56,937 nt of DNA from Candidatus Thorarchaeota archaeon (lineage in GTDB: Archaea > Asgardarchaeota > Thorarchaeia > Thorarchaeales > Thorarchaeaceae): assembly GCA_016839605.1 (NCBI GenBank), contig JAEOTX010000022.1, forward strand, positions 1 to 56,937, written 5' to 3'. Numbering within the stretch: the stretch's first letter is position 1; the number at the start of each line of letters is the position of its first letter. A program made the translations under genes and the position numbers. Shown piece by piece: positions 8,088 through 56,937 of the stretch. Under the pieces are notes generated by a model. It saw nothing but the letters and a program-made list of their open reading frames with translations. It made no database searches and was not told the DNA's origin.

Positions 8088-8298
8088 GTCAACAACTCCA
8101 AAGTGGTGGCTGTTCCTCCCTTGTTAAGCTCTTCTGTTGAGCGCCTAATTTCAGTATGACTTGGCCTCTCTCAGTAGCCTTAAGTATCGCATCGACCCGC
8201 CCCGGGCAGCAGTTAGTGTTACCTGGGAAATACATCAGCTGATATGTTTGCTATCTAACAGCTGACGTGATGACCATTCAAGTTGGGAGTCTAGAAAC

Positions 8299-8796
8299 AT
8301 GACCCGATACGTCAAGGTCGCCCTGATGGGCTCTGGTTACGCGGGTAAATCCACCCTCATCAAGCTTCTAACTGATAGCAAAAAGAAGCTACAGGTGAAT
8401 TATCAGCCTACAGCAGGGATGGACTGCGGAACCATTACTCTTGATAGCACTACCAAGGTCTCATTAGTCGAGATGGGTGGCCAGTCTCATTTCGAGTTCA
8501 TGTGGGCTGATTTGATGAGGGGTAGCAAAATGGTAGTTTTGGTCACTGAAAGCAATCCCAAGGCTGTTCTCAAAACCCGTCAACTTCTTCATAAATACAA
8601 GGACAAGTTCAATGGAGCTCGAGTGATTGCGATAGCCAATAAGCAGGATGTTGAAGGGTCCATGAAGCCCGAGTCTGTACAGGATTTACTTGGAGTCCCA
8701 ACCTATGGGATGGTGGCGATTGATCCTAAGCAACGCCTTCATGGTTACAAACTAATAATCAATGGTCTAAGAGACCTGCTTCGTGTGGCTGCATAG
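8299..8796 (+). CDS. Small Ras-superfamily GTPase (Arf/MglA-like)
   Basis: G1 GSGYAGKS, G2 PTAG, G3 EMGGQ, G4 NKQD. Confidence 0.85.
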   Translation: MTRYVKVALMGSGYAGKSTLIKLLTDSKKKLQVNYQPTAGMDCGTITLDSTTKVSLVEMGGQSHFEFMWADLMRGSKMVVLVTESNPKAVLKTRQLLHKYKDKFNGARVIAIANKQDVEGSMKPESVQDLLGVPTYGMVAIDPKQRLHGYKLIINGLRDLLRVAA

Positions 8797-8982: not shown

Positions 8983-9783
8983 ATGGATATAATGATTATA
9001 CACCGGCAAGATGATGTTATTCACTTTCTTGTGGAAGGCATCGATGTTGCCTTTGCAAACGCACTTCGGAGAACTATGCTTACCCGCGTGCCTGCAATGG
9101 CAATTGATGAGGTGCTTGTGCTTGAGAATACCAGTGTCATGTACGATGAAATTCTCGCTCACAGGCTTGGTCTAATACCTCTAATCACTGATCTAGAGAG
9201 CTATAATCTCCCTCAGGACTGTGACTGTGAGGGAAAGGGTTGTAGTCTATGCCAGTGCACACTCACCCTCGAGAAGGAGTCCGGTAGCGAAGATGTAGTT
9301 GTTTACTCAGGCGATCTTGTGTCACAAGACCCCAAAGTGAACCCCTCGACTGGAGAAATACCGCTTGTCAAGCTCGCACCGAATCAGAGGCTCATTATCG
9401 AGGCTTACGCACGTCTAGGAACTGGTCTTGAGAATGCCAAGTTTCAGCCAGTTTCTACTGTGGCATACAAGTACGTACCAATAGTAGAAGTTGACAAGGA
9501 CAAATGTACAAAGTGTGAGGCATGTGTGGAGGTCTGCCCGAAGAAGATTTTCGTAATCGACAAGGACACACTGGCAACCCAGAACACCTTGGACTGTACC
9601 ATGTGTGAGTTATGTGTTCAGGAATGCGAACCAGGGGCAATTACGATAGGGTCTAAGAACGACGCCTTTCTTTTCAAAGTCGAGTCATCCGGCGCGCTAG
9701 CTCCAGAGGCAATCGTGGAGAATGCAGCAGACACACTGAAGAAAAGAATCAGAGTTTCTCTCGACTTTGTTGGCAAATTATGA
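8983..9783 (+). CDS. rpoD: RNA polymerase subunit Rpo3 (D) with ferredoxin-like insert
   Basis: ANALRR, NTSVMYDEILAHRLGLIP, AKFQP; CxxCxxCxxxCP motifs. Confidence 0.97.
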   Translation: MDIMIIHRQDDVIHFLVEGIDVAFANALRRTMLTRVPAMAIDEVLVLENTSVMYDEILAHRLGLIPLITDLESYNLPQDCDCEGKGCSLCQCTLTLEKESGSEDVVVYSGDLVSQDPKVNPSTGEIPLVKLAPNQRLIIEAYARLGTGLENAKFQPVSTVAYKYVPIVEVDKDKCTKCEACVEVCPKKIFVIDKDTLATQNTLDCTMCELCVQECEPGAITIGSKNDAFLFKVESSGALAPEAIVENAADTLKKRIRVSLDFVGKL

Positions 9784-9794
9784 GGTGAATACAA

Positions 9795-10157
9795 TTGGTA
9801 AAATCAGGACCAACTGACCCCAATACTCGTGCACTCATTAATGCACTGAGGAAGACATCTAGCAAACACAATGCAAAGGTCTGGAAGCGGGTCGCAGAGC
9901 TAGTGTCACGCCCAGCCAGAAAGCGAGCTACAGTCAATATTGGAAAAATAGGACGCCACACACAGGCTGGAGACGTGGTAGTGGTCCCAGGAAAAGTCCT
10001 GGGCTCTGGTATCCTGCCCCACAAAGTGACAGTAGCAGCACTGAACGCCTCTGCTTCAGCCCGATCCGTGATTGTTGGAGCAGGAGGCTCATTAATCACT
10101 ATTGATGAACTGCTGACCAAAGTCCCAAAGGGGAAGGGAGTGACAATTATCATTTAG
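9795..10157 (+). CDS. rpl18e: 50S ribosomal protein eL18
   Basis: VVVPGKVLGSG; operon context. Confidence 0.95.
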   Translation: MVKSGPTDPNTRALINALRKTSSKHNAKVWKRVAELVSRPARKRATVNIGKIGRHTQAGDVVVVPGKVLGSGILPHKVTVAALNASASARSVIVGAGGSLITIDELLTKVPKGKGVTIII

Positions 10158-10166
10158 GTGGTTTCA

Positions 10167-10619
10167 ATGAGCGAGAAAGAAGTAAAGGTCTACGATGCCG
10201 AGAATATGGTCATTGGACGATTGGCCTCCAAGGTAGCGAAGGCTGCACTCCTCGGTGATAGAGTGGCTATTGTGAACGCGGAGAAAGCTATAATCACAGG
10301 TGACAAGTATACGGTCATTGAAGCCTACAAAGAGAAGTTCAATATTCGTACCTCCTATAATCCACGAAAGGGACCATTCCATCATCGTCGTCCAGACAAG
10401 ATGGTCCGGAGGATTATTCGAGGCATGTTACCATGGCCCACCCCTCGTGGGAAAGCGGCCTACAAGAGAGTGCAGTGTTTCATTGGCATTCCAGATAAGT
10501 ATGCGGAATCAGAGAAGATTGTACTCGAAGGTTCTAAGTACAAGAGCCTCCGACAGAAATACATCACGATAGCAAACCTGAGCCATGAACTCGGATGGAG
10601 AAACCCGGAGGTCGTATGA
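10167..10619 (+). CDS. rpl13: 50S ribosomal protein uL13
   Basis: GRLASKVAK, NAEKAIITG, RGMLP. Confidence 0.96.
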   Translation: MSEKEVKVYDAENMVIGRLASKVAKAALLGDRVAIVNAEKAIITGDKYTVIEAYKEKFNIRTSYNPRKGPFHHRRPDKMVRRIIRGMLPWPTPRGKAAYKRVQCFIGIPDKYAESEKIVLEGSKYKSLRQKYITIANLSHELGWRNPEVV

Positions 10620-41969: not shown

Positions 41970-43180
41970 CCAAGTCGTTTCTTTCGCTTGTCCATCAAAT
42001 TCCTCATAGTCCTAGCAACCTTAGGAAGTCCAAAGTAATCCATCCTCAATAGCTTGTCAATGAATCTCTCGAGCTGAAGAGGAGTCCCCATCACCAGCAC
42101 ATCCGTCTTCTTTACCTTGGAATCAATTGCATCTGTATGATAAGCTGCATCGCCACCTAGAGCAAGCATCTCCTGCTTGATTATCAATGCAGCAGGAGTC
42201 TCAATGTTTCTGAGAAGGAAACTGAGGGTGACTGCTTTTCTGGATAGAGCCCGTTTTATGTCAGCACCTGTTCCAATCTTTTCAATGATGATTTCTGCAG
42301 CTCGCTCGTCTATGATGCTAAGAAGGTCTACATCTTGTTCGGTTTTTCTTCTCCAGTTTCCCAATCTATCCCCAATAGCGGCAGCCTCTCTCGCTTCAAT
42401 CACATCATGAGCCCGTATTATGCTTGCACCTCTCGCGACAACCACTGAAGTGGCTGCAATGGTCCCTGTGAGCCGATCACTTGGATTTGGCTGGTCAAGT
42501 AGGTTTCCAATAAATGCCTTCCTCGAAACCCCTACAAGAACAGGATGCCCCCACATGGTAAATCGTTGTAGATGTCGAATCAATGCAAAGTCGATTTCTG
42601 GAGGCTTTCCAAATCCAATACCGGGGTCTACTATCATTCGGTCTTTGGCAATCCCTGCCGTGTGGGCGATATTTAGGCTCTTGGCTAGTGCCCCTATAGA
42701 CTGCTGGATACTCTTGCATGGTTTCCTACAAAGCGACATCAGTACAACAGGTACATCTCTATTGGATACTAATTCTGCCATCTCTGAGTCATTCTGTAGA
42801 CCTGAGATATCATTAACGAGCGCTGCCCCTAGATCAAGAGCGAATTCTGCCACTATAGAGGATGTAGTATCGATAGAAATAGGAACGCTAGCAGTTTGCA
42901 TAATGATTTCCAGACCTGCTTTAACCCTCTGAAGTTCTTTCTCAACAGATACCTGTTGAGTATTGTAGATTCCCTCAGGAGCTGTTGAAGCTCCGCCAAC
43001 ATCAATTATGTCTACACCATCTTTCTCCATCTGCTGTACTTTTTTGCTCACACTCTCCTCATCAACCACAACAGACTCTGAATAGAAGGACTCTGATGAG
43101 AGGTTGACGACTCCCATTACCCGAGTTGGATAATCTGCTCCGATCTCGATATTCCCGACTTTGACTGTATAGGGAGTCAT
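41966..43180 (-). CDS. folP: Dihydropteroate synthase with C-terminal extra domain
   Basis: MGVVNLSSESF, SIDT, DPGIGFGK, GVSRKAFIG, RAHDV. Confidence 0.92.
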   Translation of the reverse strand: MTPYTVKVGNIEIGADYPTRVMGVVNLSSESFYSESVVVDEESVSKKVQQMEKDGVDIIDVGGASTAPEGIYNTQQVSVEKELQRVKAGLEIIMQTASVPISIDTTSSIVAEFALDLGAALVNDISGLQNDSEMAELVSNRDVPVVLMSLCRKPCKSIQQSIGALAKSLNIAHTAGIAKDRMIVDPGIGFGKPPEIDFALIRHLQRFTMWGHPVLVGVSRKAFIGNLLDQPNPSDRLTGTIAATSVVVARGASIIRAHDVIEAREAAAIGDRLGNWRRKTEQDVDLLSIIDERAAEIIIEKIGTGADIKRALSRKAVTLSFLLRNIETPAALIIKQEMLALGGDAAYHTDAIDSKVKKTDVLVMGTPLQLERFIDKLLRMDYFGLPKVARTMRNLMDKRKKRLG

Positions 43181-43269
43181 TCTGAACTACCTCGTTCGTG
43201 GGTATAGAGGAAAGGAAATAAAACCTAGTGGATTCGCCCCAGACATCGCGAAACCCATGGTGAGATGCA

Positions 43270-44415
43270 ATGAATGACAAGCTTCAACGTACACACCTCT
43301 ATGATTGGCATGCAAAGAATGGTGATTTAGTCCCTTTCTCAGGATGGGAGATGCCAGTCCGCTATACCGACATCCGTGAGGAGCACATGGCTGTGAGGGA
43401 CTCTGTTGGAATCTTTGACACATCTCATATGTTTCGCTTCGTCATCAAGGGCTCACAGGCTCTAGAGTTTCTTCAGACGATGACCTCCAATAATGTCAGG
43501 AAACTAAAGGTGAATGGCGGCCAATACACGACTTGCCTAAATGAAAACGGTGGTATTCGTGACGATCTCATGCTCTACCGAGTCGAGGAGCAGGAGTATA
43601 TCTGGGTCACCAACGCAGACAATGGGCCTAAGATTAGCGCTCACCTCAACCAGCACGCCAAGAATTTTGACGTAGAAATAACCGACAGGACAAGAAACAT
43701 CGCAATGATTGCCGTACAAGGTCCCAAGGCAATGACATTATTGAGTAAAATCGCCGGACGTGACCTGAGTGAATATGGAAGGTTCACAAGCAATCTTGTA
43801 GACCTTGGTGGTTATAGCTCCTACCTTTGCCGTACAGGGTATACAGGAGAAGACGGTGCAGAGATTCTGCTGCTTGACACGCCCTTCAACAATGAGGGGA
43901 AGGATAAAGCTACCGCCTTCTGGGAGCTGCTTCTCAATCAGGGAGAAGAGTTTGGAATCAAACCCTGTGGTCTTGGAGCTCGGGACTCAACACGTCTGGA
44001 GGCAGGCTTGGTACTTTATGGAAATGACATTGACGAGGAAACCTCACCGCTAGAGGCTAGGATTCGCTATGCAGTCAAGTTTAAGGTCGATCCTCACTAC
44101 ATCGGTTATGATGAGCTCAAGCGACAGAAGGAAGAGGGGGTTGACAAGACTAGAATTGGGCTAGTCATGATTGACCGTGGTGTACCCAGGAAAGACTACG
44201 ACATACTGCTTAGGGGTGAGACCATTGGTAAGGTTTCTAGTGGAGTCATGTCGCCTATTCTTCGGAGCGGAATTGGCTTAGCCTATGTAAAGCCTGGTGT
44301 CGTAGAAGAGGGTGACACAATTGAAATCGACATCAAGAGAAGGCTCAGAAAAGCCAGAGTGACAAAGTGGCCCTTTTATGATTCTGAGAAATACGGTTCA
44401 ACCCGGTCATCATGA
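43270..44415 (+). CDS. gcvT: Glycine cleavage system T protein
   Basis: FSGWEMP, FDTSHM, RTGYTGEDG, GLGARDSTRLEAG. Confidence 0.96.
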   Translation: MNDKLQRTHLYDWHAKNGDLVPFSGWEMPVRYTDIREEHMAVRDSVGIFDTSHMFRFVIKGSQALEFLQTMTSNNVRKLKVNGGQYTTCLNENGGIRDDLMLYRVEEQEYIWVTNADNGPKISAHLNQHAKNFDVEITDRTRNIAMIAVQGPKAMTLLSKIAGRDLSEYGRFTSNLVDLGGYSSYLCRTGYTGEDGAEILLLDTPFNNEGKDKATAFWELLLNQGEEFGIKPCGLGARDSTRLEAGLVLYGNDIDEETSPLEARIRYAVKFKVDPHYIGYDELKRQKEEGVDKTRIGLVMIDRGVPRKDYDILLRGETIGKVSSGVMSPILRSGIGLAYVKPGVVEEGDTIEIDIKRRLRKARVTKWPFYDSEKYGSTRSS

Positions 44416-44472
44416 TTAGCCGTTTGATTTAAAGGTAGCATGACACACTCCGGGAACCAACGGTGGACCATC

Positions 44473-44874
44473 ATGACTGAAGGAACTAATGTACCTGAGG
44501 ATTTGAAATACAGTAAGGATCATGAATGGGTAAAGGTCGATGGCGACCTTGTGGTTGTGGGCATAACAGACTACGCCCAACACTCACTTCATGAGATTAC
44601 ATTTGTGGAGCTTCCAGAAGTCGGCTCTAGTGTTGAAGCAGACTCCGAATGTGGTCTCGTTGAATCCATGAAAGCCTCCTCTGATCTATTCTCACCCCTC
44701 TCTGGAGAGATTGTGGAAGTCAACTCCAATCTTGAAGACGCTCCCGAGCTTGTTAATGAGGAGCCCTATGGAAAGGGTTGGATGTTCAAAATCAAACCAT
44801 CCAATCTTGATGGCGAGAAAGGCGCTCTGATGGATGCTAAAGCCTATAGTGAGTTGATAGCTTCCGCTGAATGA
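44473..44874 (+). CDS. gcvH: Glycine cleavage system H protein
   Basis: HEWV, GITDYAQ, VESMKA (lipoyl Lys), PYGKGW. Confidence 0.96.
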   Translation: MTEGTNVPEDLKYSKDHEWVKVDGDLVVVGITDYAQHSLHEITFVELPEVGSSVEADSECGLVESMKASSDLFSPLSGEIVEVNSNLEDAPELVNEEPYGKGWMFKIKPSNLDGEKGALMDAKAYSELIASAE

Positions 44875-45046
44875 AGACCTCTGGATTGGTAATCAGGGAC
44901 TTTCGGTTCCACAGCAAACACACTATCTGTGGACGTTAATTATTGTTTCAAAACCAGCTGTACACTAGTAAGACTAACAGCAACCTTTTTAGCACAACCA
45001 GAATCTGCTCGGATGACTTCGAGTCAGAACGGAGAGAGCACTCCAT

Positions 45047-47803
45047 ATGTCTGGATACGACAGGTTCAAACGGTCCACGGGAAGATTTCTCAGACAAATC
45101 TTCCATAGACCAAAAGCAAAGATTTCACGCGGCTCCGTAATTCTGGTCATAGCTTTGACCATTATTTTCTTCGCTGCTCTAATGCTGCGTCTATACCCAC
45201 TTCTCAACTCACAACCAGTTCTCCGGGCATTTGACCCATGGTTCCAGCTGAAGGTGACCGAATACGTGGTCGACAATGGCTATGGCGCATTCTTCACATG
45301 GTTTGATCAAACAACATGGGTCCCATTCGGTCGAGACATCACCACCACATCTTATGTTGGAGTGCCATTCACAAGTGCCTTCTTCTACTTCATACTCAAT
45401 GGATTTGGAATCAGCGTTGATGTCCTCACAGTATCCCTTGTTATGCCTGCATTTCTGGGTGCACTTACAGCTATTGCAGCATTCTTCTTGGGACGCGAGC
45501 TCATGAACAACACAGTTGGTCTTCTTAGTGCACTACTCCTAGCATTCCTTCCCGCGTTCATTCAGAGAACTGTAGCCGGCTTCTATGATAATGAATGCGT
45601 TGGGGTACTCGCCATTGTAGTTTCCACATTCTTCTATACGAGGAGCCTGAAACGAGGCTCTTTACCATCAGCAGTAGGTGCAGGTCTGGCTTTAGGCTAT
45701 CTCTTAATATCATGGGGCGGCGGCGATTTTCTCCTAGGCCTGTTAGCCCTCTATTCATTCGTTATGCTTATCAGCGGACGCTACAACAAGCGCCTTCTCA
45801 ACTCATACCTGATCACTGTAGCACTTGGCATTTTCATTGGGGGACTAATCCCGCGGAATGGATTTGCCGACCTCACAACATTTTCCACTTTGGCTCCAAT
45901 TGGTATTGGGGTATTACTTGCAGGATACGAAGTCTGGTTGCGAATAGAGAGTTATAGAGAGGCTACTGCAACATTTCTAGCACCTCATATGAAGCCTATT
46001 TTGCTAGGGCTAATTACTCCTATAGCAGGAATTGCAGCATACCTTGGATATGCAGGAACAGTTGAGCTTGGTATCCGACCCTTTACATCCAACCCGGTAG
46101 TGACACTAGGCACTAAGTTTCTCACAGTCATCAATCCCTTTGTGCGTCTGGACCAGAGAATCTTTGCTTCAGTCGCAGAGCATTTACCAAGTCCATGGGG
46201 AAGCTTCTATCATACATTGAATCTCCTAATCTTCTTCTTCCCCCTCGGATTGTACTTCCTCTTCAAGCGTGGTCGTGACGAGGATTGGCTGATCTTCCTT
46301 TTTGGAGTGACTTCAGTCTACTTTGCAGGTAGCATGATTCGACTTGGCTTAATCTTGGCACCTGCCGTAGCTGTACTCTCTGCGGTTGCAGTGAACGGAA
46401 TGCTATCACCCTTCTCGAAGGTGGTCACACAGAAGTCAGTCTTTGAGAGACGGAGATTCAGAATGAGCTCGTCCTTGACATCAGAACATGCAATTGTGGC
46501 TTTTGCATTCGTGGGACTGCTTCTTTCACTCAACCTGTATCTTGGAGCGGACTATGTCAACCGCTATGTGGGCTCACCAGAGTTTGCACAGGATTCACTC
46601 TCAGAAGGAGCTCGGTTCACTGACTGGCAGACCGGGATGACTTATGTTCGAGATGTGCTGCCAGAAGATGCCATTGTGGCAAGCTGGTGGGACTACGGAT
46701 ATTGGATAAATGGTGCTGGAGAAGCGGAAACGATAGTCGATAATGCCACGTGGAATCGGACGCAAATCGCGTTAATGGGCTATGCCTTGATGGCATTAAA
46801 CCTGACTGAGTCATTGAAGACATTCAAGCAGTGGAACACCACACATGTGCTAGTCTACTATGGCCATCGAACATCATGGGCTGGCGGTGATGATGGCAAA
46901 TGGCCTTGGATGGTTCGAATTGCTGAGGATCGGTTTGGTTCCGAACTAATAGACGATGCATGGTACTTGGGTGACGATCCCACTACTCCTACAGTGATTG
47001 AAGAGGAGTATATGCTTGACACTTTCTTCGAGTCTACACTCTACAAGCTGATGGTATTTGGAGAACCAGTTAGTCAGGAGGAAGGCCAAGCCATGGGTCT
47101 CACAACCGACAGGGTTCAGATGGATGCGTTCTATCAACAAGATGAGCGCTGGTTATCACATATGCCAGTGGATCTCTTCGGGGCTTTCGTAAATCCATAC
47201 ACAAGCTCCAATCTTGGAACTGTCAAGATATACGAGATAGACTACACAATGTATGAGCAATACATGAACCGGACCGCTGCTGATTGGATAATACCCGATA
47301 CTCTTCAGACAATCAAGCTTGATGGTAATCTGAGCAGTTCGGAGTTGACCAATCTCAATACCTACGATGTAGTGTTTGGCGGAAACTACGGTGCAACTGT
47401 ACACACTGGAATCAACTCGACCCACCTCTACTATGGAATACAGATGGACAACTACACAAAGGGTGAGGATGCGCTTGGAATACAAATTGCGCCACTTGAC
47501 TCTCCTGGTGATTCGGACCTTCTTCTAGTAGACTATGATGGCCACGAGTTCTATGATGGTCACGTCGCTTATGATGGTTCTTGGGCAGAAGACACCTCAG
47601 GTGCAAACACCACGCTCTTCGCAAGCGGAGAGAATGTGATAGAACTCCTGATTCCACTGAACGCAAGAGATACACAGGATGTAGACTTCAACCCTGGTAT
47701 GAACTATCAGATACGGCTGCTGTTCTGGAACAACGTTAACAGTGGAGAACCAACCTTCGACTCTGATTGGACAACAATCTGGGTTGAAGTGGAACTACAC
47801 TAG
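45047..47803 (+). CDS. aglB: Oligosaccharyltransferase catalytic subunit AglB/STT3 with C-terminal beta domain
   Basis: FDPWF, GFYDNE, SVAEH, SWWDYGY, DNAT, DDGKWPWMVRIA. Confidence 0.95.
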   Translation: MSGYDRFKRSTGRFLRQIFHRPKAKISRGSVILVIALTIIFFAALMLRLYPLLNSQPVLRAFDPWFQLKVTEYVVDNGYGAFFTWFDQTTWVPFGRDITTTSYVGVPFTSAFFYFILNGFGISVDVLTVSLVMPAFLGALTAIAAFFLGRELMNNTVGLLSALLLAFLPAFIQRTVAGFYDNECVGVLAIVVSTFFYTRSLKRGSLPSAVGAGLALGYLLISWGGGDFLLGLLALYSFVMLISGRYNKRLLNSYLITVALGIFIGGLIPRNGFADLTTFSTLAPIGIGVLLAGYEVWLRIESYREATATFLAPHMKPILLGLITPIAGIAAYLGYAGTVELGIRPFTSNPVVTLGTKFLTVINPFVRLDQRIFASVAEHLPSPWGSFYHTLNLLIFFFPLGLYFLFKRGRDEDWLIFLFGVTSVYFAGSMIRLGLILAPAVAVLSAVAVNGMLSPFSKVVTQKSVFERRRFRMSSSLTSEHAIVAFAFVGLLLSLNLYLGADYVNRYVGSPEFAQDSLSEGARFTDWQTGMTYVRDVLPEDAIVASWWDYGYWINGAGEAETIVDNATWNRTQIALMGYALMALNLTESLKTFKQWNTTHVLVYYGHRTSWAGGDDGKWPWMVRIAEDRFGSELIDDAWYLGDDPTTPTVIEEEYMLDTFFESTLYKLMVFGEPVSQEEGQAMGLTTDRVQMDAFYQQDERWLSHMPVDLFGAFVNPYTSSNLGTVKIYEIDYTMYEQYMNRTAADWIIPDTLQTIKLDGNLSSSELTNLNTYDVVFGGNYGATVHTGINSTHLYYGIQMDNYTKGEDALGIQIAPLDSPGDSDLLLVDYDGHEFYDGHVAYDGSWAEDTSGANTTLFASGENVIELLIPLNARDTQDVDFNPGMNYQIRLLFWNNVNSGEPTFDSDWTTIWVEVELH

Positions 47804-47814
47804 CAGATCAAAAT

Positions 47815-47840
47815 GCGATTGGTCTAGGAAGGCCAATCGC
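47815..47840. terminator. Hairpin between convergent aglB and nop10
   Basis: GCGATTGGTCT-AGGA-AGGCCAATCGC followed by a T-rich tract. Confidence 0.5.
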
Positions 47841-47856
47841 CATTGATTTCTTTCTT

Positions 47857-48030
47857 TTATTGTAATTGATCTCTCGATTTCCGCTTGGCTTTCCTGCGGT
47901 ATTCACCATATCGGTCTTGAGGACTGTACTTTGGGGGCTGTGGGGAAACTACTGAACCCCCACACACAGGACACTTTTCTTCCTCAAGCGTATATTGGGA
48001 ACAGTCTGTACACTTAAAGAGGCGAGCCAT
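47857..48030 (-). CDS. nop10: H/ACA RNP protein Nop10 (absent from ORF track)
   Basis: Manual translation MARLFKCTDCSQYTLEEEKCPVCGG..PPKYSPQDRYGEYRR; follows aIF2-alpha. Confidence 0.93.
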   Translation of the reverse strand: MARLFKCTDCSQYTLEEEKCPVCGGSVVSPQPPKYSPQDRYGEYRRKAKRKSRDQLQ

Positions 48031-48039
48031 GACAGACCA

Positions 48040-48834
48040 CTACTTCCGGTCAAACTCGAAGGAGCCGCCCTTTCCCTCTACAATCTTGGTGACCTTGCCC
48101 AAGATACCTGAAAGGACCTCCTCTCCTTCTTGATAATCAGGACTCTGTATTCTCAGCTTGTATCGTGGCGAACCAAGTGTGTAAATCTCAACTGTTGATT
48201 TTTCCATGGACTGACCTAGGGTTAGGCCCTCTGAAAGTGCCTTTTTTATGACCTCGACGCCCTCAGGGCCGGGAACAAGAATTTTCATTTCGCCCTCTAT
48301 TTCAATTGACGGTATCTCAATCCTGACTTTTGCTAAATCTGCAATCTGTTTCTTGAGTTTCTTCGTGGACTCAACGTGTTCTAATGCGTCTAAGCCTACA
48401 TCGGACGCAAGCTCAAGTCCCTTGTAGATCTCACCAAAGGCATCCTCCATGGGCCAGCCTATCTTCTCATAGACCTTCTCAAGAGTCAAGTCGTTTTCTT
48501 TTGCTATGAGTTCTAGGAGTTTCTCTGCCTTCTGTGCACGTTTCCATTCATTGTTTTTCGCTCTCCTAGCTTCAGTAGATACCCTTCTCAGAGAGCAGTC
48601 AATGTGACGTTTCTGAATGTCAACCTGCAGGACCTTTATCACAACGCGCTGATTTTCGTGGATATGATTTCGAATGTTCCTGACCCACGTGCTGCTAACC
48701 TCTGATATATGGATGAAGCCCTCTTTGTCGCTAAATTCAGGAAGCTTGACGTATGCGCCATATGGAGCCACTTTGGATGCAACTGCAATGGCATATTCAT
48801 CTTGATGTGGCCATTCTGCACGTTTCAGGACCAT
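48040..48834 (-). CDS. eif2a: Translation initiation factor aIF2 alpha
   Basis: S1 domain YGAYVKL..EGFIHISEVS..; GSPRY. Confidence 0.95.
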   Translation of the reverse strand: MVLKRAEWPHQDEYAIAVASKVAPYGAYVKLPEFSDKEGFIHISEVSSTWVRNIRNHIHENQRVVIKVLQVDIQKRHIDCSLRRVSTEARRAKNNEWKRAQKAEKLLELIAKENDLTLEKVYEKIGWPMEDAFGEIYKGLELASDVGLDALEHVESTKKLKKQIADLAKVRIEIPSIEIEGEMKILVPGPEGVEVIKKALSEGLTLGQSMEKSTVEIYTLGSPRYKLRIQSPDYQEGEEVLSGILGKVTKIVEGKGGSFEFDRK

Positions 48835-48927
48835 TATCTCTTCTCCTTCTGGGGAATCCACAATGGTGTGCTAATATAGATTTGGGAGTGAAAAGGAATT
48901 GACAGACTCTGTAGAGGTCTATCGGTC

Positions 48928-49128
48928 TCAAGGATACTCTTCAATTTCTCGTGCAATAGCCTCAAGCTTTGCCTTACCGCCACTCGGACGAGCTAAGACC
49001 TTTTCACACTTCAGGCATTTCACTTCGGTCGTAGCGTGAGCGAAGATGATCTGTTCATTCTCGCAATCCAGACACTTGACCTTCAGGAACCGTGACCTTG
49101 GCTGCTGAACTATCTCTCCCTTAGTCAT
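48928..49128 (-). CDS. rps27e: 30S ribosomal protein eS27
   Basis: PRSRFLKVKCLDC..C..C..PSGGKA. Confidence 0.95.
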   Translation of the reverse strand: MTKGEIVQQPRSRFLKVKCLDCENEQIIFAHATTEVKCLKCEKVLARPSGGKAKLEAIAREIEEYP

Positions 49129-49137
49129 TATCTTCAC

Positions 49138-49419
49138 CTATACTCGAAGTACTTCGAGCTTCTTCACCCTGATGCCCTTTGCCTGGAAGGTGTGTTCGCA
49201 ATCCTTGCATTTGTACTTGAGCACAGTCTTCTTTGTAGTCTTTGCAAAACGCTTCTGGATGTTTTTCGGGAATGAGCCGTAACCCTTTGTCTTCCTCTTC
49301 ATCCGGCGTTCGCCCTGTGCCATGCTTCGCCTCTTTCCTGCCTTGTATGGAGATATGGAATGCATAGTATGGCTCTTGCATCTGGGACAGTATTTTCTGA
49401 GCTCGCCTTTGATCTTCAT
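49138..49419 (-). CDS. rpl44e: 50S ribosomal protein eL42 (L44e)
   Basis: YCPRCKSHT..KTTKK..CKDC. Confidence 0.95.
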   Translation of the reverse strand: MKIKGELRKYCPRCKSHTMHSISPYKAGKRRSMAQGERRMKRKTKGYGSFPKNIQKRFAKTTKKTVLKYKCKDCEHTFQAKGIRVKKLEVLRV

Positions 49420-49507
49420 GCGAATCACCAGTCTCGGGCTTTGGGACCCGACTCTGAATCGTTTATAACCCTTAGGGCATGTGCCTTAGGAATTACTAGG
49501 AGTTGTC

Positions 49508-49705
49508 CTATATCCAGCCAAATTCGGTTGCGAGATGGGATATAACAGTAGCAATCAGTAACAGAGCTGCAAATATCACAACCATAGTTGGACCCACCTT
49601 TATACCAGGTGTCTCGTCCTCGAAGAAACGTATAAGCCCGGCTCCACCACTCGGCATTGGCCCCTCTCCACGTTTCTTCCTGCGTTTCTTTGAGGTCTTA
49701 GGCAT
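49508..49705 (-). CDS. secG: Preprotein translocase Sec61-beta (SecG)
   Basis: GAGLIRFFEDETPGIKVGP plus TM helix. Confidence 0.92.
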   Translation of the reverse strand: MPKTSKKRRKKRGEGPMPSGGAGLIRFFEDETPGIKVGPTMVVIFAALLLIATVISHLATEFGWI

Positions 49706-49826
49706 GCCATTGCATCTCCTGATTGGTCAAGTGAGCGATACCTGCGTTTTTAATCCTTCCGACATGAAGGCGTCCTAGAAACCGCTAGATTCATCTCTTT
49801 CATTACGTTCTCCGTAAGTTCGATTA

Positions 49827-50360
49827 TTACCCAATCTTCCGAATGACTGCCGAAGCTGTATCGTGCAGCACCTTTGAAATGCTGGATAGCATCTGAATAG
49901 TCTGTTGTTGTTTCTGCAGCATATTTTGCAGATCTATGTTTGCCAGTTGCGCGTCATCGCCAATTTCTGACAATTTGCCTTCCCATTCCTTTATTCTTGC
50001 ATCAAGTTCTTCCGATTGATCGATGTATGATTTTGCTTTCTCCACAGAAGTGAGGATGGAGTCTTCCCTCTCCACTACCTTGAATTTATTCGATTTCTCA
50101 TCATATTTCCAGACATCACCGGTCTTGGTATTCAATATGAATTCACCAGCAATCTGATACTTTCCAGATTTCTCTTCACTCCTGGAACTCATATCACTAG
50201 GGGCTGGTTTCCGTGCCTGACTTGAGCTTGATGTGCCAATGGGCTTCCTTTTCACAGACGGAGGGGTCTGAGAAACATGATGTCCACATTTCGGACAATT
50301 CTCCGCTCCAGCAGGAATGGAGGTTCCACATTCACGACAATACTGATTTTGCCTACTCAT
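49827..50360 (-). CDS. Zinc-ribbon protein with C-terminal helical hairpin resembling T3SS needle subunits
   Basis: CRECG..CPKCG; S/P-rich linker; C-terminal LQNMLQKQQQTIQMLSSISKVLHDTASAVIRKIG. Confidence 0.7.
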   Translation of the reverse strand: MSRQNQYCRECGTSIPAGAENCPKCGHHVSQTPPSVKRKPIGTSSSSQARKPAPSDMSSRSEEKSGKYQIAGEFILNTKTGDVWKYDEKSNKFKVVEREDSILTSVEKAKSYIDQSEELDARIKEWEGKLSEIGDDAQLANIDLQNMLQKQQQTIQMLSSISKVLHDTASAVIRKIG

Positions 50361-50465
50361 GAGTAATCACAAGTTTCTGCGGTGCTGTTTACAGATTAAA
50401 GCTCTCTGGAATATTCCGTCTTGAATCTGAGAGAGTCTATTCCGCATCAATATGTGACCAGTCTA

Positions 50466-51311
50466 TCACATGTCTCGATGCCTCAAGTATCTCAGCATCA
50501 GTCCTGTGACAAATGCGAACACCGCTATGCCCATTGCCACAGAAACTCCGAGATTTTCCATCAAAAACACAATGATGTCAGAAGGATTGGTGGGAGGACT
50601 TGTGATATCGGTGCTGCTGGTCGGGCTAGTTTCGGTGGTTGTAGTCGTTGTATCTGTTGTCCTGATGAGAGTGAATTCCGGTGGTTCAACACTGTTCAGT
50701 ACTCGGATATTATCAATTGCATGGGGTCCTTGTGCTAGAAAGCAGAAGTAGTTAGACGTACTGAAGGTGTTGTCCATAGTACAGATCATGAGAACGCCAT
50801 TTATGAAGACGTCCATCTCGCCAGACACTTCTCTAGTGACAGTGAAATTCCACCATCCAAAGAAGTTCTCACCATAGTTTGTGCCAATAGTGTCAATCGA
50901 TCCTGAATGTGCTAGCTGGAGTTTGAGGCGGTCTCTCTCAATTAAGAGTCGATATCCCTCTCCAGGATTATAGTTGAAGGATTGATCAAGAGTGTTGCAG
51001 ATAAACCACAGTGCAATATGATCTGTCCCGTTATGATAAATATCAAAGTTCCATGTGCCATTTGCCACAGTACTGTTTCGGTGTATCCAGTGAGGTCCTG
51101 AGCCCACTCCGCGGAGTGTCCCATCAGCAGCAGAGAATAAGCCCTGCGTGACAGTCCAATTGATATAACTTCCCTCATTAAAGTCATCATACCAGACCTC
51201 AGAGGTTACTCCCTGTGCTGATATAGGACTAATACCTCCATGCAAGACGATACTGAACCATAGTAGAATGACTAGAACAAATAGGCCTGCCCGGCATCGT
51301 TTCCGACTCAT
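50466..51311 (-). CDS. Cell-surface glycoprotein: signal peptide, ConA-like beta domain, Thr-rich linker, C-terminal TM
   Basis: WYDDF..W..G..; many sequons; TTDTTTTTTETS. Confidence 0.7.
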   Translation of the reverse strand: MSRKRCRAGLFVLVILLWFSIVLHGGISPISAQGVTSEVWYDDFNEGSYINWTVTQGLFSAADGTLRGVGSGPHWIHRNSTVANGTWNFDIYHNGTDHIALWFICNTLDQSFNYNPGEGYRLLIERDRLKLQLAHSGSIDTIGTNYGENFFGWWNFTVTREVSGEMDVFINGVLMICTMDNTFSTSNYFCFLAQGPHAIDNIRVLNSVEPPEFTLIRTTDTTTTTTETSPTSSTDITSPPTNPSDIIVFLMENLGVSVAMGIAVFAFVTGLMLRYLRHRDM

Positions 51312-51510
51312 CTACAGTTTCCCCAAATCCGAGGTCTGAATATATTTGCGGACTATAGCTCAATGGTATAATGCGTATGCTTGCATTTAGAATTATGCTC
51401 ACCTGACTAGTAATAGAACCAGGCCCCTCAAGAGTCAGCACATTCGCAGGATGCATTCCTGCCTAGTAAGCTCTATATGAGCATCAAATCGATGATGTTT
51501 TGGTGGTTAA

Positions 51511-52440
51511 ATGACCACACGACAACGTGATTTCCATTGGAATGAGGATTTTGAACTTGTCAGAAACTTCCTCATAGAGATATTCAACTTGACAAAATCT
51601 CTTCATAATATGATTCCCTCCAGGTTTGAGAATAGGAAATTCGGTCCTTGTGGTCCAGAATACACAGATGAAGATGACAAACTTGTCAAGATCTGGGAGG
51701 AAACGGACCGCCCAAAGGAGCAGAAACTCATCGCTGTGACCATTCTTGATACCTCTCCTGTGTCATATCTCAACATTCATCCAGACTATATGCATGTCGA
51801 GAAAGATATCATACTTGCAATGGAAGAACAGAAGAAGGCGATGGGAAAAACCGATGATAGAGAGGTCCGAATTGCATTCGTGACTCCTGCAAGTCACACT
51901 CAGCGACAGGAACTTCTGAAAGAGCTTGGTTATGAAAATCTTGGTAACTACGGACATAATCGAATTAGACCCGTTGACCTGGTTGTACCGGATTATCAAC
52001 TTCCCGATGGCTACTCGATAAAACATGTTGATGTTGCTGATGAATTCGAAAAATATCACGAGGTCATTGGTTCAGTATTCTCTCATTGCGGAAAATACAT
52101 GACTGAGAAAATGGCCAAGATTTACAGTGAAGCTTCATTCTATCATGATGGTATGGATTTAGTTGTGGTTACACCTGATGGGAACTTTGCTGCGTTTACA
52201 ACTATTAGGATTGATCCTGTGAGTGGGATTACCGAATTTGAACCAGTTGGCACTCACCCAGATCATCGAAAACTTGGCCTAGCGAAGTCTATTATCCTCG
52301 AAGGACTGAAACGTCTAGAGAGACATCACCCCTCGTTTGTCTGTATTCCAGAAGCTGCGGATAATGAAGGTGCAACGAGGTTATACGACTCTCTTGGGTT
52401 CTCTAGGGAAAATCTCTGTGTATGGAGAAAATTCCTCTAA
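51511..52440 (+). CDS. GNAT-family acetyltransferase
   Basis: FEPVGTHPDHRKLGLAK; ATRLYDSLGF. Confidence 0.88.
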   Translation: MTTRQRDFHWNEDFELVRNFLIEIFNLTKSLHNMIPSRFENRKFGPCGPEYTDEDDKLVKIWEETDRPKEQKLIAVTILDTSPVSYLNIHPDYMHVEKDIILAMEEQKKAMGKTDDREVRIAFVTPASHTQRQELLKELGYENLGNYGHNRIRPVDLVVPDYQLPDGYSIKHVDVADEFEKYHEVIGSVFSHCGKYMTEKMAKIYSEASFYHDGMDLVVVTPDGNFAAFTTIRIDPVSGITEFEPVGTHPDHRKLGLAKSIILEGLKRLERHHPSFVCIPEAADNEGATRLYDSLGFSRENLCVWRKFL

Positions 52441-52454
52441 CGGATCATTTTGGA

Positions 52455-52751
52455 TTATCTGGTATCCAGACACTTACAAGGAGTCTTTCCACATCTTGAG
52501 CAGGCGTTATTGTACTTGTTAAGTAGGGCTTCCCCTAGGTCTATTTCTAGAAGATTCGCAATTGAGATTACCCATGCAAAGACATCTGCAACTTCATCTA
52601 TGATGTATTCCATTCCTCTCTCCTTGGAAATTGCATCACTCAGTTCAGCAAGCTCCTGGAATGTTCTTAGAAGAGTGCGCTCCATTCCTCTTTCTTTGTC
52701 CCTCTCAAGATAGATACGACGAATCAGGTCCTGAGCTTTCTCAATATCCAT
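52455..52751 (-). CDS. MazG-like nucleotide pyrophosphohydrolase
   Basis: ELAEL..DEVADVFAW; C-terminal CSRCGKTPCKC. Confidence 0.88.
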   Translation of the reverse strand: MDIEKAQDLIRRIYLERDKERGMERTLLRTFQELAELSDAISKERGMEYIIDEVADVFAWVISIANLLEIDLGEALLNKYNNACSRCGKTPCKCLDTR

Positions 52752-52795
52752 TGCTTCATCCTCCGGGAGGGATGAACCCACCATTAAATGGGCTC

Positions 52796-54127
52796 CTACA
52801 TGAACCGTAGGTGCGCATACGCATCCGTATCAGTGTCGAATGCATAGTGCACCTTCTGATAGTCCTTCCTGAACTCGGAAGCGTCAGCAGCAATCTTCTC
52901 TGTCTTCTCGCCCTTCATCACCAGACGCGTCATGAGCTCTGCAACAGCATCCATTTCAGACTCTTTCATACCCAGACGTGTCAACTCGCTTGTTCCTAGT
53001 CGGATACCCCCAGGAGTTTTGTAGTCACGGCCTCTCTTCTTGTCCCAGGGCAGGAGGTTCCTGTTGATTACAATGTTCGCGTTTTCGAGCTCTTCTTCCA
53101 CGGTCCGACCATCTTTCATAGGAGTTTCAGTGACATCCACCAAGATGACATGGGACTCCGTGAAGCCCTTGTGCTCTGCTATGACTTGCCAGCCCCGTTC
53201 ATGCAAAGATTGCGCCAATGCTTTTGCATTCTTAAGAATCTGGTCCATGTACTCGACACCAAACTCCATCAACTCGGCCAGAACCACGGCAAGACCTGCG
53301 ACATTGTGCAGATGATGGTTGCTCAGAAGGCCTGGAAATGATGCTCTCTTTATAGGCTCAGCAAACTCTTCTTGGGCCAAAATGATTCCATGTTGTGGAC
53401 CGGGCATTGTCTTATGCGTAGACGCAGTCATCATGTCCGCACCCTCTCTTAATGGGTCCTGGAATCTTCCTGCTGTAATTAGACCAGACACATGCGCGGA
53501 GTCGTAGCCAATTGTCATTCCGTACTCATCTGCGATGTCACGGAACTCCTTGACAGGGTGTGGGAATGGAAACACGCTGCCTCCGAATAGGAGAAACTTG
53601 ATCTCATCGCCCTTGTTCTGAAGCTTCTTGATGAGGTCAATGCTTGCATCAACATCGATATTGAACTCCTCATCATTGAACACCCAGTTGCGTACCTTAT
53701 GACCCCTTATAGCTCCTGCAGTACCACCAAGGTTCTTCCTAGCGTGGGAGATGTGTCCTCCATGTGCGATTGAAAGGGCTAGCATCCTCTCATTCGTATC
53801 CATGGCTGCTGTGTACATTGCAAGGTTCGCAACAACACCAGATATGGGCCGGACATCTGCGAAAGGTGCATTGAACAGCTTCTTCGCGAGGTCTATTGTG
53901 ATTAGCTCGACCTCGTCAATGAACTTGCAGCCAGCGTATACCCGTTCTCCAGGCCATCCCTCTGCATAGCGGTCTCGAAAGTCGCATACGATTGCAGACC
54001 TGACAGCTGGTGACGACACGTTCTCGGATGCGATGAGGTTTATTGTGTTCTGCATCCATGTATCATGTTTTTCGATCAAATCAAAGACCTGATCGTAGAG
54101 TTTCTTATGTTCAGTCAACTCGGACAC
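52796..54127 (-). CDS. glyA: Serine hydroxymethyltransferase (archaeal type)
   Basis: LIASEN, YAEG, GGHISH, STHKTMPGPQHG, GIRLGT. Confidence 0.96.
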   Translation of the reverse strand: MSELTEHKKLYDQVFDLIEKHDTWMQNTINLIASENVSSPAVRSAIVCDFRDRYAEGWPGERVYAGCKFIDEVELITIDLAKKLFNAPFADVRPISGVVANLAMYTAAMDTNERMLALSIAHGGHISHARKNLGGTAGAIRGHKVRNWVFNDEEFNIDVDASIDLIKKLQNKGDEIKFLLFGGSVFPFPHPVKEFRDIADEYGMTIGYDSAHVSGLITAGRFQDPLREGADMMTASTHKTMPGPQHGIILAQEEFAEPIKRASFPGLLSNHHLHNVAGLAVVLAELMEFGVEYMDQILKNAKALAQSLHERGWQVIAEHKGFTESHVILVDVTETPMKDGRTVEEELENANIVINRNLLPWDKKRGRDYKTPGGIRLGTSELTRLGMKESEMDAVAELMTRLVMKGEKTEKIAADASEFRKDYQKVHYAFDTDTDAYAHLRFM

Positions 54128-54412
54128 TCCTGAGCCTAGACGATGCGTGCGCTAGAAGTGTCCTCGTTATATGGCTTACGACCTGACTCGACTACACTGT
54201 TTCTTCAAAAAGGGAGAATCGCGCTTCAAACCGCTAGATTCTTCTCTCTTCTTTCCCATACCAAATAGACTAGGTGTGATTCGGCGGGTCTGGGACATTG
54301 CTGTCGACTCTTCTGAACCCTGAATGACTCAACTAGAGCAACATACCCATGAGAACGCAAACCATTGTTCTCTGAAAACCAATGTGCCAGACGTGGCGAG
54401 AGGGAATGAAGG

Positions 54413-54631
54413 ATGTTAAGGACAAAGATTGACTGGCGAGCCGTGGCAAAAGCATTGACATGGCGGGTTCTGGCCACTGCGACGACCATTACCGTTGCAT
54501 TTGTTTTCACAGGATCTGTAGAAATCAGTCTTGGAATTGGGAGCATCGAGGCATTACTGAAGTTGGCGTTCTACTACTTCCACGAAAAAGCATGGGATAG
54601 GGTAGTAGTAATGCCTGAGGGAACGTCATGA
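54413..54631 (+). CDS. DUF2061-like small membrane protein
   Basis: KALTWRVLAT...YYFHEKAW. Confidence 0.8.
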   Translation: MLRTKIDWRAVAKALTWRVLATATTITVAFVFTGSVEISLGIGSIEALLKLAFYYFHEKAWDRVVVMPEGTS

Positions 54632-54677
54632 GAGAAACGCATAAAGAATCTGTTTCTCGCAGACCTGAAGCGTTTCG

Positions 54678-55217
54678 CTAGATATCCCGTAATTCAGGTA
54701 ATCGGACGACCAGATCGGTAAATACCTCTTCGATATTCTCTCCTGTTTTTGCTGAAACCTCGAAGTATCTCACCTTTAACCACTCAGCAAGCATCTTTCC
54801 AGCCTGAATCGGCACCAGTCTTGTTTCCATGTCTATTTTATTTGCCACCAAAGCGACACTAGCTGTAGGGCACACTGCTACAAATTTCATGAACCACTCG
54901 TGAGCAGTCATGAATGTGGGAGGTCTCGTCACATCGTACACAATCAGCCCCATCATAGCACCGGCCATATAGCGTCGCCTCAACTCATTATACGAAGGTT
55001 GACCTGCCAAGTCCCAAAGAACAAGTCGTATGCGCAATCGTCGGCCTGATGGATTGGTGTGATCAATCGTCTTTAGTGAGAAAGCAGTCCCAATTGTAGA
55101 CTTGTAATCTGCATTGAATATGTTATCCGTGTATCTTTTGATGCAGCTAGTTTTGCCTACCCCCCAATCCCCAAGTGCGACTAGCTTTAGTAAGAGGGGA
55201 GAGGGTTCATCGTCCAT
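54678..55217 (-). CDS. Rab-like small GTPase
   Basis: GDWGVGKT, YKSTIG, WDLAGQ, NKID, EVSAKTG; no prenylation tail. Confidence 0.92.
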   Translation of the reverse strand: MDDEPSPLLLKLVALGDWGVGKTSCIKRYTDNIFNADYKSTIGTAFSLKTIDHTNPSGRRLRIRLVLWDLAGQPSYNELRRRYMAGAMMGLIVYDVTRPPTFMTAHEWFMKFVAVCPTASVALVANKIDMETRLVPIQAGKMLAEWLKVRYFEVSAKTGENIEEVFTDLVVRLPELRDI

Positions 55218-55396
55218 TCAGAGTAGCTCCTAATACGGCATCTGTAATTCTCTCGACAAAATCAGATAATAACCATTCTAGGATGCCGTGTATGAACATC
55301 AGAGAATAAAAGAAAGAGTGTAACGAGCAATCAACCGATTGCCCGCTTTCGCAACTGCTGTCAGTTGCATAGAATTGTTAGTGTTGTCAGTGACTT

Positions 55397-55927
55397 TTAG
55401 TATCGACGTCTGTCGCGGCCGCCACCACCGTAGCCACCGCCACCACGCCTGTCTCTGCCACCGCCATAGCCACCGCCGCCACCGCGTCGGTCTCCGCCAT
55501 AGCCGCCTCCGCCTCGACCGCCACCACCGTAGCCTCCACGGCGACGGTCGTCTTCATGCTCCTCAGCACTCATATCAACATCCATGTTGACTTCGTCGAT
55601 TGCTTCCTCAGCCTCAGACACCTCACCATACTTCCCAATGTTGAGACGTAGGTTTCCTCTGAATAGGCCTGTGTAGCCGTTCTTCAGGGTGTAGGTGTTT
55701 CCGATCGCTAACTCGTCTATGTTTGCATCCCAAAGGGGTACTGCCACACGCGCGGTTGAGTCGCCAACCACGGCATCTAGCACGCGATGACTCTCCCCAC
55801 TTCCACGTGAGGTTACCTCGCGCTCTTCTCCCATCTCCATTATTTTGAAGGAGATGGTGACATTCTTCATTCGTGGCTTCAACTCAGCCACTGTAGCCTC
55901 AATAGGCTCTCTGTCGTTGTAACTCAT
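55397..55927 (-). CDS. ssb: Single-OB-fold SSB with RGG/YGG low-complexity tail
   Basis: VAELKP..VGDSTA..LW..NGYTGLFRGNLRLNIG; tail (GGYGGG/RDRR)n. Confidence 0.85.
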   Translation of the reverse strand: MSYNDREPIEATVAELKPRMKNVTISFKIMEMGEEREVTSRGSGESHRVLDAVVGDSTARVAVPLWDANIDELAIGNTYTLKNGYTGLFRGNLRLNIGKYGEVSEAEEAIDEVNMDVDMSAEEHEDDRRRGGYGGGGRGGGGYGGDRRGGGGGYGGGRDRRGGGGYGGGGRDRRRY

Positions 55928-56340
55928 TGTATATACTCTCACTTGAGAATAACAGGTCCTGCAAAACTAGCGTGATCTTCCGTGGAGTGCGATGTTGGAT
56001 TGAACCCTCAAAGAAACCAGTCTGAAAAGCAGCTCTTTCGTGGTACTCCTGCAGCTTCATGCCGCGGGAATTTGCTTATGATGTTATCTATTGGACCTAT
56101 TCTAGCTAGTTAGATGTTGAATCAGACGAGTATCAGAGAGCTCGAGTTCAAAGAGTCAGGGGACCACACTCTGCGGCTCGAGAACAATGATGAGGAGTTC
56201 CGAGAATGACACTGTGCTCAATGCAGGAGAAGAATTGATGATTCTCATATGGAGAGGGGGTCGGTTTTGGTTTTGCCGTCTTGGACTAACCTAATTTCCT
56301 CGCAAGCCTTAATTTCATTCGCAACTCGGGAGGTGTGAGT

Positions 56341-56937
56341 GTGTCCCGTGGTATGTACGAGGAGATTGACAGAAGCGGTCAGGCAAAATGGACACTTCCT
56401 ACGATTATGGGTTTCATTGTAACTGTTGGATTATTGACTGTGAAACTCTTTGGGGATCCTCTGGGAGATCCTCCGTATAACAATCGAGTTGATGTTGTAT
56501 TCCTTATTGGATTTGCACCAGTAGGAGCTTGTCTTCTAGGGAGTCTATTTGGAGTACTAAGAAAAAGAGCTACTAGAGTGAATCCAGACCGACTTGAATT
56601 CAGTGATGATGTCAGAAATTTGGATGATTTTGGAGAAGTGTATTATGAAGGCGATTTCAAAACTGGTGAATTGGGAGGTCATCCAGTATATGGATGCGGT
56701 TGGGCTATTACTCTAATGCTCACAGTATTCTTGGGATTCATGGTTCTTTTCTCAATGGATGTTGTAGGGCCTGTAATTGGCTCGATAATGGAAATCATCC
56801 TTGTGGCTGTTTTCTACATAGCAGGGTATGTTTCTGCCTTTAGAGGGGTACCAATGGGAAGTAAATTGGTCAAAGATCCTCTACATCATCGCATTACTAA
56901 ATATCTAACAAAATATGATGTGCTTCAAAGTATTACA
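56341..56937 (+). CDS. Hypothetical membrane protein, 3' truncated
   Basis: GGAGGTG then GTG; frame appears open to the window end; several hydrophobic segments. Confidence 0.7.
   Translation, partial: MSRGMYEEIDRSGQAKWTLPTIMGFIVTVGLLTVKLFGDPLGDPPYNNRVDVVFLIGFAPVGACLLGSLFGVLRKRATRVNPDRLEFSDDVRNLDDFGEVYYEGDFKTGELGGHPVYGCGWAITLMLTVFLGFMVLFSMDVVGPVIGSIMEIILVAVFYIAGYVSAFRGVPMGSKLVKDPLHHRITKYLTKYDVLQSIT

Follow-up and report, generated by a model that had tools for sequence, protein, structure and literature searches.

In the stretch of Thorarchaeota DNA analysed here (56,937 nucleotides, called the window below), one gene encodes a 177-amino-acid accessory protein that very probably carries at its C-terminus a helix captured from the axial family of the bacterial type III secretion system (T3SS), joined to a local scaffold of zinc ribbon and beta domain. 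T3SS axial proteins are generally thought to be bacterial and tied to their own export machine. Here, a T3SS terminal helix is kept by purifying selection in Asgard archaea in which the export machine was not found, and was captured more than once. A literature search that took in few subscription journals returned no paper on this helix family in archaea.

The gene, its product and its genomic site

The gene lies on the minus strand at 49827..50360, and both the open reading frame and the C-terminal sequence quoted in the earlier note match it exactly. Its product consists of a zinc ribbon, a variable linker, a small beta domain and a long C-terminal helix. The zinc ribbon (residues 7-28, with two CxxC pairs; 50277..50342, minus strand) matches PF13240 with E=1e-5 and 25.6 bits against a Pfam cut-off of 25, in agreement with the same note. 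Similar ribbons are present elsewhere in the same Thorarchaeota genome, and the motif is a common one at archaeal N-termini. A Ser/Pro/Lys-rich linker (residues 31-65; 50166..50270, minus strand) is modelled with pLDDT <50 at residues 32-66. The four-stranded beta domain that comes next (residues 66-100; 50061..50165, minus strand), with strands as seen in the AlphaFold model, belongs to no known family; an atlas search with it gave no usable match, and all 28 matches to a query of residues 62-112 carry the C-terminal helix too. The C-terminal module (residues 118-177, core 136-177; 49830..50009, minus strand) is a helix of the T3SS needle/tip-filament superfamily.

In the AlphaFold monomer prediction, the zinc ribbon is followed by a disordered linker, then by four short strands and finally by a single continuous helix at residues 102-176. 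Mean pLDDT is 63, rising to 86-90 at residues 141-170, with about 68 at residues 131-140. Neither a signal peptide nor a membrane segment is predicted. The tail is rich in Gln and acidic, not cationic; it has an amphipathic C-terminal end and contains no proline, which bears out the observation in the earlier note that the PxxP turn of needle proteins is missing. A four-copy complex prediction of the tail scored 0.01, a value that counts neither way. Fold searches with the model of the 177-aa protein and with that of a bacterial relative returned generic coiled coils or zinc ribbons only.

The contig comes from a Thorarchaeota genome that is 80% complete, and close homologues of the protein carry Thorarchaeota names. 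Upstream of the gene lie mazG (52455..52784, minus strand) and glyA; downstream lies Sec61-beta (49508..49705, minus strand), the first gene of a Sec61b-L44e-S27e-eIF2alpha run that marks the contig as archaeal. In a 92%-complete relative without the gene, mazG directly adjoins Sec61-beta, and the gene is therefore an insertion. Contamination was rejected, since several independent Thorarchaeota assemblies have the gene among the same neighbours, which it also resembles in GC content. We considered a functional link to Sec61-beta as well, but it is unsupported: occupancy of the site varies between genomes, and in two relatives the gene is located elsewhere. No conserved partner gene was found at the mazG/Sec61-beta site, and no needle chaperone genes lie beside the gene. 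Where the earlier note had envisaged a "system", we find a single inserted gene without a conserved partner, in which the fusion to a zinc ribbon is one N-terminus among many. In one wetland RNA run, three 151-base contigs fall on the gene at a depth of about 2, but contigs of this kind cannot show transcription; a promoter scan, which models bacterial promoters only, gave chance-level results.

Several neighbouring genes deserve mention in their own right. Between mazG and the 177-aa gene, window positions 50466-52440 hold two genes, one for a 281-aa protein without a Pfam family, predicted to be exported and membrane-anchored with a Thr-rich stalk, and one for a GNAT acetyltransferase; relatives have the GNAT gene alone or neither. 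At the mazG site of one relative, a closely related zinc-ribbon N-terminus (61% identical) sits on a membrane domain (L025:1498-2133), and in another relative a related one is joined to a mazG-like remnant (L024:1288-1668). These two arrangements point to a zinc-ribbon leader that may be shuffled at the mazG locus. The window also holds two genes that are expected in Asgard genomes, one for a Rab-like small GTPase (54678-55217; Ras family, E=1e-41) and one of the STT3/AglB type (45047-47803).

Remote homology to T3SS axial proteins

The likeness of the tail to needle proteins is visible in a single pair of sequences. The ungapped alignment to PrgI proposed in the earlier note was reproduced with residues 145-176 against residues 51-82 of PDB 3zqb (8/32 identities), and shuffling gave p = 2e-4 by BLOSUM score and 2e-3 by identity count, values that are valid for one chosen pair. 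A phmmer search of the PDB with residues 110-177 returned no needle protein at E<=10, a Pfam and NCBIfam search of the 177-aa protein gave no SctF match, and a PF09392 search of the Thorarchaeota genome did not pick up the gene. Neither the protein nor its tail reaches the SctF cut-offs of PF09392 or TIGR02105; over 58 close relatives, the best E value with these models was 0.0014. A profile of the narrow family placed EsaG at only E=0.64 in the PDB.

Broader profiles gave a different picture. Profile iteration over the fetched loci converged at 138 matches, and all of the newly added ones were C-terminal. PF09392 matches 19 of the 35 non-redundant superfamily rows (eight of them picked by PF09392), TIGR02105 matches 16, below its cut-off, and any other family matches at most two. 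Profile A3 contained the eight rows found via PF09392; our conclusions rest on A4, which was rebuilt without them. The top match of A4 in the PDB is 7y6c_F (E=4.5e-6), followed mainly by SipD/IpaD and YscF; the profile also matches EzrA, an unrelated coiled coil, at E=0.005. Structure 7Y6C is the EscE-EsaG-EsaH complex, in which EsaG is the needle protein (PMC9426511). In 301 genomes from the order of a Burkholderiales MAG, A4 recovered a 71-aa SctF that exceeds both curated cut-offs and lies inside a T3SS cluster (E=5e-5 per genome), together with an 83-aa protein that passes the Pfam cut-off, as well as proteins of 183-241 aa. At the locus inspected, two of the latter directly precede chaperone-like and translocator-like genes, which we take to be the bsp22 position; these genes are called Bsp22-like by position and architecture rather than by a curated model. 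Profile-profile comparison of the narrow family with the SctF genes gave E=2.6e-4 and a probability of 42%, with an 11-column gap at the turn, and comparison with the Bsp22-like set gave weak matches (E=0.004-0.011) that are ungapped over 57-64 columns.

Because the A4 profile finds EsaG, SctF genes and Bsp22-like tip proteins, the remote homology holds. Judged from these profiles, the tail is a member of the superfamily of needle and tip C-terminal helices, aligned in the register of the C-terminus with the SctF/SctA proteins, and the homology is real but remote. The homology to the needle C-terminal helix asserted in the earlier note is thus upheld in this remote form. PF09392 gave one weak match over 300 genomes of a single class, and tblastn of an SctF-like gene against plasmids gave none.

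The module across genomes and its T3SS-bearing relatives

The family is unannotated, and a full HMMER scan yields 1,409 clusters of the module at 50% identity. The 177-aa protein has 336 homologues of similar length, the first 39 of which share the Thorarchaeota scaffold, while the others match its last 55-90 residues only and have unrelated N-termini. Hosts with named genomes include Myxococcota, 'Bdellovibrionales', Acidobacteriota, Bacteroidota, Chloroflexota, Actinomycetota, Thermoplasmatota and others. The module nearly always ends three or fewer residues from the C-terminus. A hydrophobic N-terminus is found in 61 of 243 homologues and a second conserved helix upstream in 71 of the 243; the 177-aa protein has neither.

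Some arrangements are unusual. Three homologues (P0075, P0104 and P0111; L230:1306-1626) carry the module directly after a double-glycine, Nif11-like leader in the manner of bacteriocin precursors; their Nif11 and bacteriocin matches are weak, and the single short contig inspected for a leader-bearing gene holds no peptide exporter. Three acidic proteins of 373-870 aa (P0121, P0122 and P0124) contain the module two to four times as internal repeats, some of different subtypes, in contrast to the single C-terminal copy that is usual. At two bacterial loci, two helix subtypes lie close together (L075:3023-3535 with 9458-10183, and L087:7424-7870 with 7958-8773), in genomes without an SctV match. 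No short relatives of the second tail type turned up when they were searched for.

Multiple copies of the module go with T3SS. Thirteen of 50 module-bearing genomes hold 3-16 matches, all of them titled Myxococcota, Deltaproteobacteria or Bdellovibrionales. SctV of the non-flagellar kind passes the cut-off in 12 of these 13 genomes with three or more copies, as against one of the 37 with one or two, and the thirteenth multi-copy genome has SctV fragments at contig ends; the 13 genomes are kin and represent one association, not 13 independent ones. A low-copy unpublished genome (G309, locus L041) enters the SctV tally, the profile iteration and the identity medians given below, and no conclusion hinges on it. 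Genes for SycD/LcrH-like chaperones flank 13 of 39 loci in multi-copy genomes and one of 41 others, and a distant paralog sits in the run sctU, unknown, sycD-like, paralog, sycD-like. The AlphaFold monomer model of a T3SS-linked bacterial relative (pLDDT 88) has a helix at 22-71, an insert, and a helix at 123-184 (about 62 residues). Foldseek placed EspA at ranks 6 and 10 against the donor-family model (E 0.3-0.5), amid generic coiled coils, and VIA-align Z scores reached at most 10.6, a range common for long helices. Bsp22 and EspA are reported to have the same layout, two long helices at the N- and C-terminal ends with an insert between them (PMC12607632). On this modelled architecture, the closest relatives among bacteria have two helices and resemble Bsp22/EspA; T3SS-bearing Myxococcota-like genomes encode several copies of them, and alignments of the Thorarchaeota protein to them match over the last 67 columns only. 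The SctF-like hairpin of the earlier note does not survive these comparisons: in both AlphaFold models the C-terminal helix runs on without a break, and the nearest relatives are these large two-helix proteins and not needle subunits of 70-90 aa.

Proteins of 400-465 aa with SctF-like C-terminal ends were also observed beside SycD-like genes in T3SS-bearing Myxococcota-like MAGs (L184:8038-12456 in G304:C6, where the gene lies downstream of sctU, and likewise L146, L149, L150 and L185). As five genomes with such proteins lack a short SctF detectable by PF09392, the large proteins may be unusually big needle or tip subunits. At L159-L162 (G322:C1 and G307:C66), non-flagellar sctV seems to lie outside a compact T3SS cluster, and T3SS genes appear to be scattered across these MAGs.

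Distribution, history and selection in archaea

The module was found in 31 of 400 Asgard genomes, in one copy each and in six families, and the carriers have about seven unrelated N-termini. Within the host genus, 8 of 16 other genomes have it. It is single-copy in the genome studied here, where FHIPEP and FliP families have no matches (the genome being 80% complete). The statement in the earlier note that the window holds no export apparatus agrees with the open reading frames read at 42,000-56,937, among which none was seen. FHIPEP also has no match in five other carriers, one of them 99% complete. In another Asgard family, a 300-aa protein (L198:736-1635, L204:1501-2400 and L206:742-1641) has a signal-like N-terminus, a beta-rich region and one membrane segment, and its needle-like helix ends a predicted cytoplasmic tail; its match to TIGR02105 is weak (E=0.004).

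In trees of the module, Asgard rows stand beside different bacterial subtypes. The trees draw on 58 columns only and do not identify a donor, but over those columns a single Asgard origin is rejected (p-AU 1e-5). Within the reach of such short alignments, this shows that Asgard archaea acquired helices of this kind more than once. Three tail types occur on one zinc-ribbon scaffold, which would suggest tail swapping; we make no such claim, since for the eight rows concerned one origin stands at p-AU 0.12.

Across five Thorarchaeota orthologs, with dS near 0.9, the module has a dN/dS of 0.11 and residues 134-177 within it one of 0.06; the values are 0.18 for residues 66-112, 0.19 for the ribbon and 0.58 for the weakly constrained linker. 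The gene is under purifying selection, with dN/dS about 0.1. Some Thorarchaeota alleles are 17 residues shorter and 54-58% identical overall. The 42-residue core is 79-93% identical to the two-helix family and scattered orphans; the median is 81% (maximum 88%) for paralogs from T3SS genomes and 79% for other orphans, figures that are inflated and serve as upper estimates because the homologues were chosen by similarity to the query. Codons differ at 62% of identical core residues; it is the protein sequence that has stayed alike, and the resemblance does not reflect fresh DNA transfer. The horizontal acquisition and retention proposed in the earlier note are supported by this dN/dS, the rejection of a single Asgard origin, the empty site and the similarity of the core.

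A possible decoy or cap for foreign filaments, and its rivals

Needle and tip-filament subunits assemble via their C-terminal helix, which packs against like helices in the filament core. Chaperones grip the C-terminal helix of the needle protein and block early assembly (PMC9426511), and Bsp22 filaments grow at their distal end (PMC12607632). The archaeal protein keeps this helix almost unchanged, minus the partner N-terminal helix of the donor subunit, in a genome where an export gate was not found. Such a mimic could attach itself to a foreign T3SS filament at the open end, or to the subunits of that filament, where it would cap, jam or sense the filament, and the outcome would be defence against injecting Myxococcota-like bacteria. 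This is our preferred reading, a tentative one in which we infer the binding, the partner and the role in defence. Homology, the linkage of the donor family to T3SS, insertion, purifying selection and more than one acquisition are established in its favour. It would suit a lone helix that has stayed similar to foreign subunits, was captured repeatedly and is borne by many carriers in different compartments. The stasis of the core across domains would fit a shared outside partner, since a self-binding protein could drift by compensation. Patchy presence, insertion, repeated acquisition and unrelated N-termini are typical of conflict genes. Against the decoy stand the lack of an export signal, so that a filament would be met only after penetration or lysis; the shorter Thorarchaeota alleles, by which stasis is not universal; and two Asgard tail subtypes unseen in the T3SS loci examined. 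Filament cores such as flagellin termini can stay very conserved without an outside partner, and the reading presumes that the T3SS-bearing relatives attack archaea or are predators. In its widest form, which we consider rather unlikely, free-standing needle and tip helices would be a cross-domain defence family, in which T3SS-less bacteria and archaea, Asgard repeatedly, captured the assembly helix of injecting bacteria and use it, whether outside the cell, on the membrane or within the cytoplasm, for capping or detecting incoming filaments.

Nearly as likely as a decoy or cap is a domesticated self-assembly helix, the tail bundling with its own copies into an oligomer or a fibre in the cytoplasm, with the zinc ribbon and beta domain on display. 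Needle proteins self-assemble unless held by a chaperone (PMC9426511), and the homology to polymer-forming helices, the confidently modelled and amphipathic end of the helix, and its constant place at the end of the protein all agree with this; yet the donor subunit's N-terminal partner helix is missing, the alignment with the donor family being confined to the tail, the site has no conserved partner gene, about half of the genus does without the gene, and near-stasis relative to distant bacteria would not be required. That TPR-like chaperones grip needle C-terminal helices (PMC9426511) would also suit a portable docking tag, by which the helix attaches to one of the cell's own receptors, such as a TPR groove, in a pathway unrelated to secretion. 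The membrane proteins of the other Asgard family, whose predicted cytoplasmic end bears the tail, the internal repeats in a few bacterial proteins and the paired subtypes at L075 and L087 are in keeping with a tag. We nevertheless think it unlikely, as the orphans examined had no co-occurring partner gene next to them, and a host receptor common to many phyla and archaea is hard to picture given the patchy presence. The leader-bearing homologues and the hydrophobic N-termini noted above would be expected of an exported or released antagonist peptide that hits the membranes of other cells as a bacteriocin does, the archaeal copy being freed by lysis or an unknown route; the archaeal protein lacks an export signal, the one leader-bearing gene inspected has no adjoining exporter, and the tail is not cationic, which makes this improbable. 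A functionless passenger of recent transfer, or a chance coiled-coil likeness to needles, is very improbable and largely refuted: the direct SctF matches are non-significant and A4 has its weak match to EzrA, but dN/dS is 0.06-0.11 at a dS near 0.9, PF09392 far outstrips every unrelated family among the superfamily rows, and the unbiased A4 profile ranks a needle protein first and recovers SctF genes.

If the decoy is true, it would represent a new type of defence against bacteria that inject, offer a natural scaffold for T3SS inhibitors and give a clue to the attackers of Asgard archaea; if self-assembly is true, a new archaeal polymer would have been made from a bacterial part. The gene is accessory and patchy, and both roles are proposals.

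Comparison with known systems

The SctF needle proteins (EsaG/SsaG, YscF, PscF, PrgI and MxiH; PF09392, TIGR02105) are homologous to the Thorarchaeota protein over its last ~40 residues, with the same end register. In other respects the two differ: SctF proteins are stand-alone and about 70-90 aa long, whereas the Thorarchaeota protein has 177 aa and extra domains, falls far under the family cut-off, and comes from a genome in which T3SS genes were not found. In place of a hairpin with a PxxP-type turn, its tail is modelled as one helix (102-176), as is that of the bacterial relative (123-184). Identity as an SctF needle subunit was rejected on these four features: cut-off, size, hairpin and T3SS export apparatus.

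The modelled donor family, with its long N-terminal helix, insert and ~62-residue C-terminal helix, resembles the Bsp22/EspA proteins (SctA class, to which the C-terminal helix of SipD/IpaD may also be compared), and the tail of the Thorarchaeota protein shows the weak, ungapped alignment to Bsp22-like proteins described above. The Thorarchaeota protein lacks the pairing N-terminal helix that its bacterial relatives have. Many donor loci have class II chaperone and translocator neighbours, whereas the Thorarchaeota gene sits between mazG and Sec61-beta. With both the N-terminal helix and the T3SS gene context missing, identity as a Bsp22/EspA subunit was rejected as well.

Archaeal zinc-ribbon proteins (PF13240) share the N-terminal CxxC...CxxC ribbon and a low-complexity linker with the protein, which differs from them in having no membrane segment and in ending in the captured helix. 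With the two-helix family of T3SS-bearing Myxococcota-like MAGs and the orphans, it has in common the C-terminal module, nearly always at the extreme C-terminus; the Thorarchaeota copy is single, has no export signal, and is joined to a zinc ribbon of archaeal type and to a beta domain specific to its lineage.
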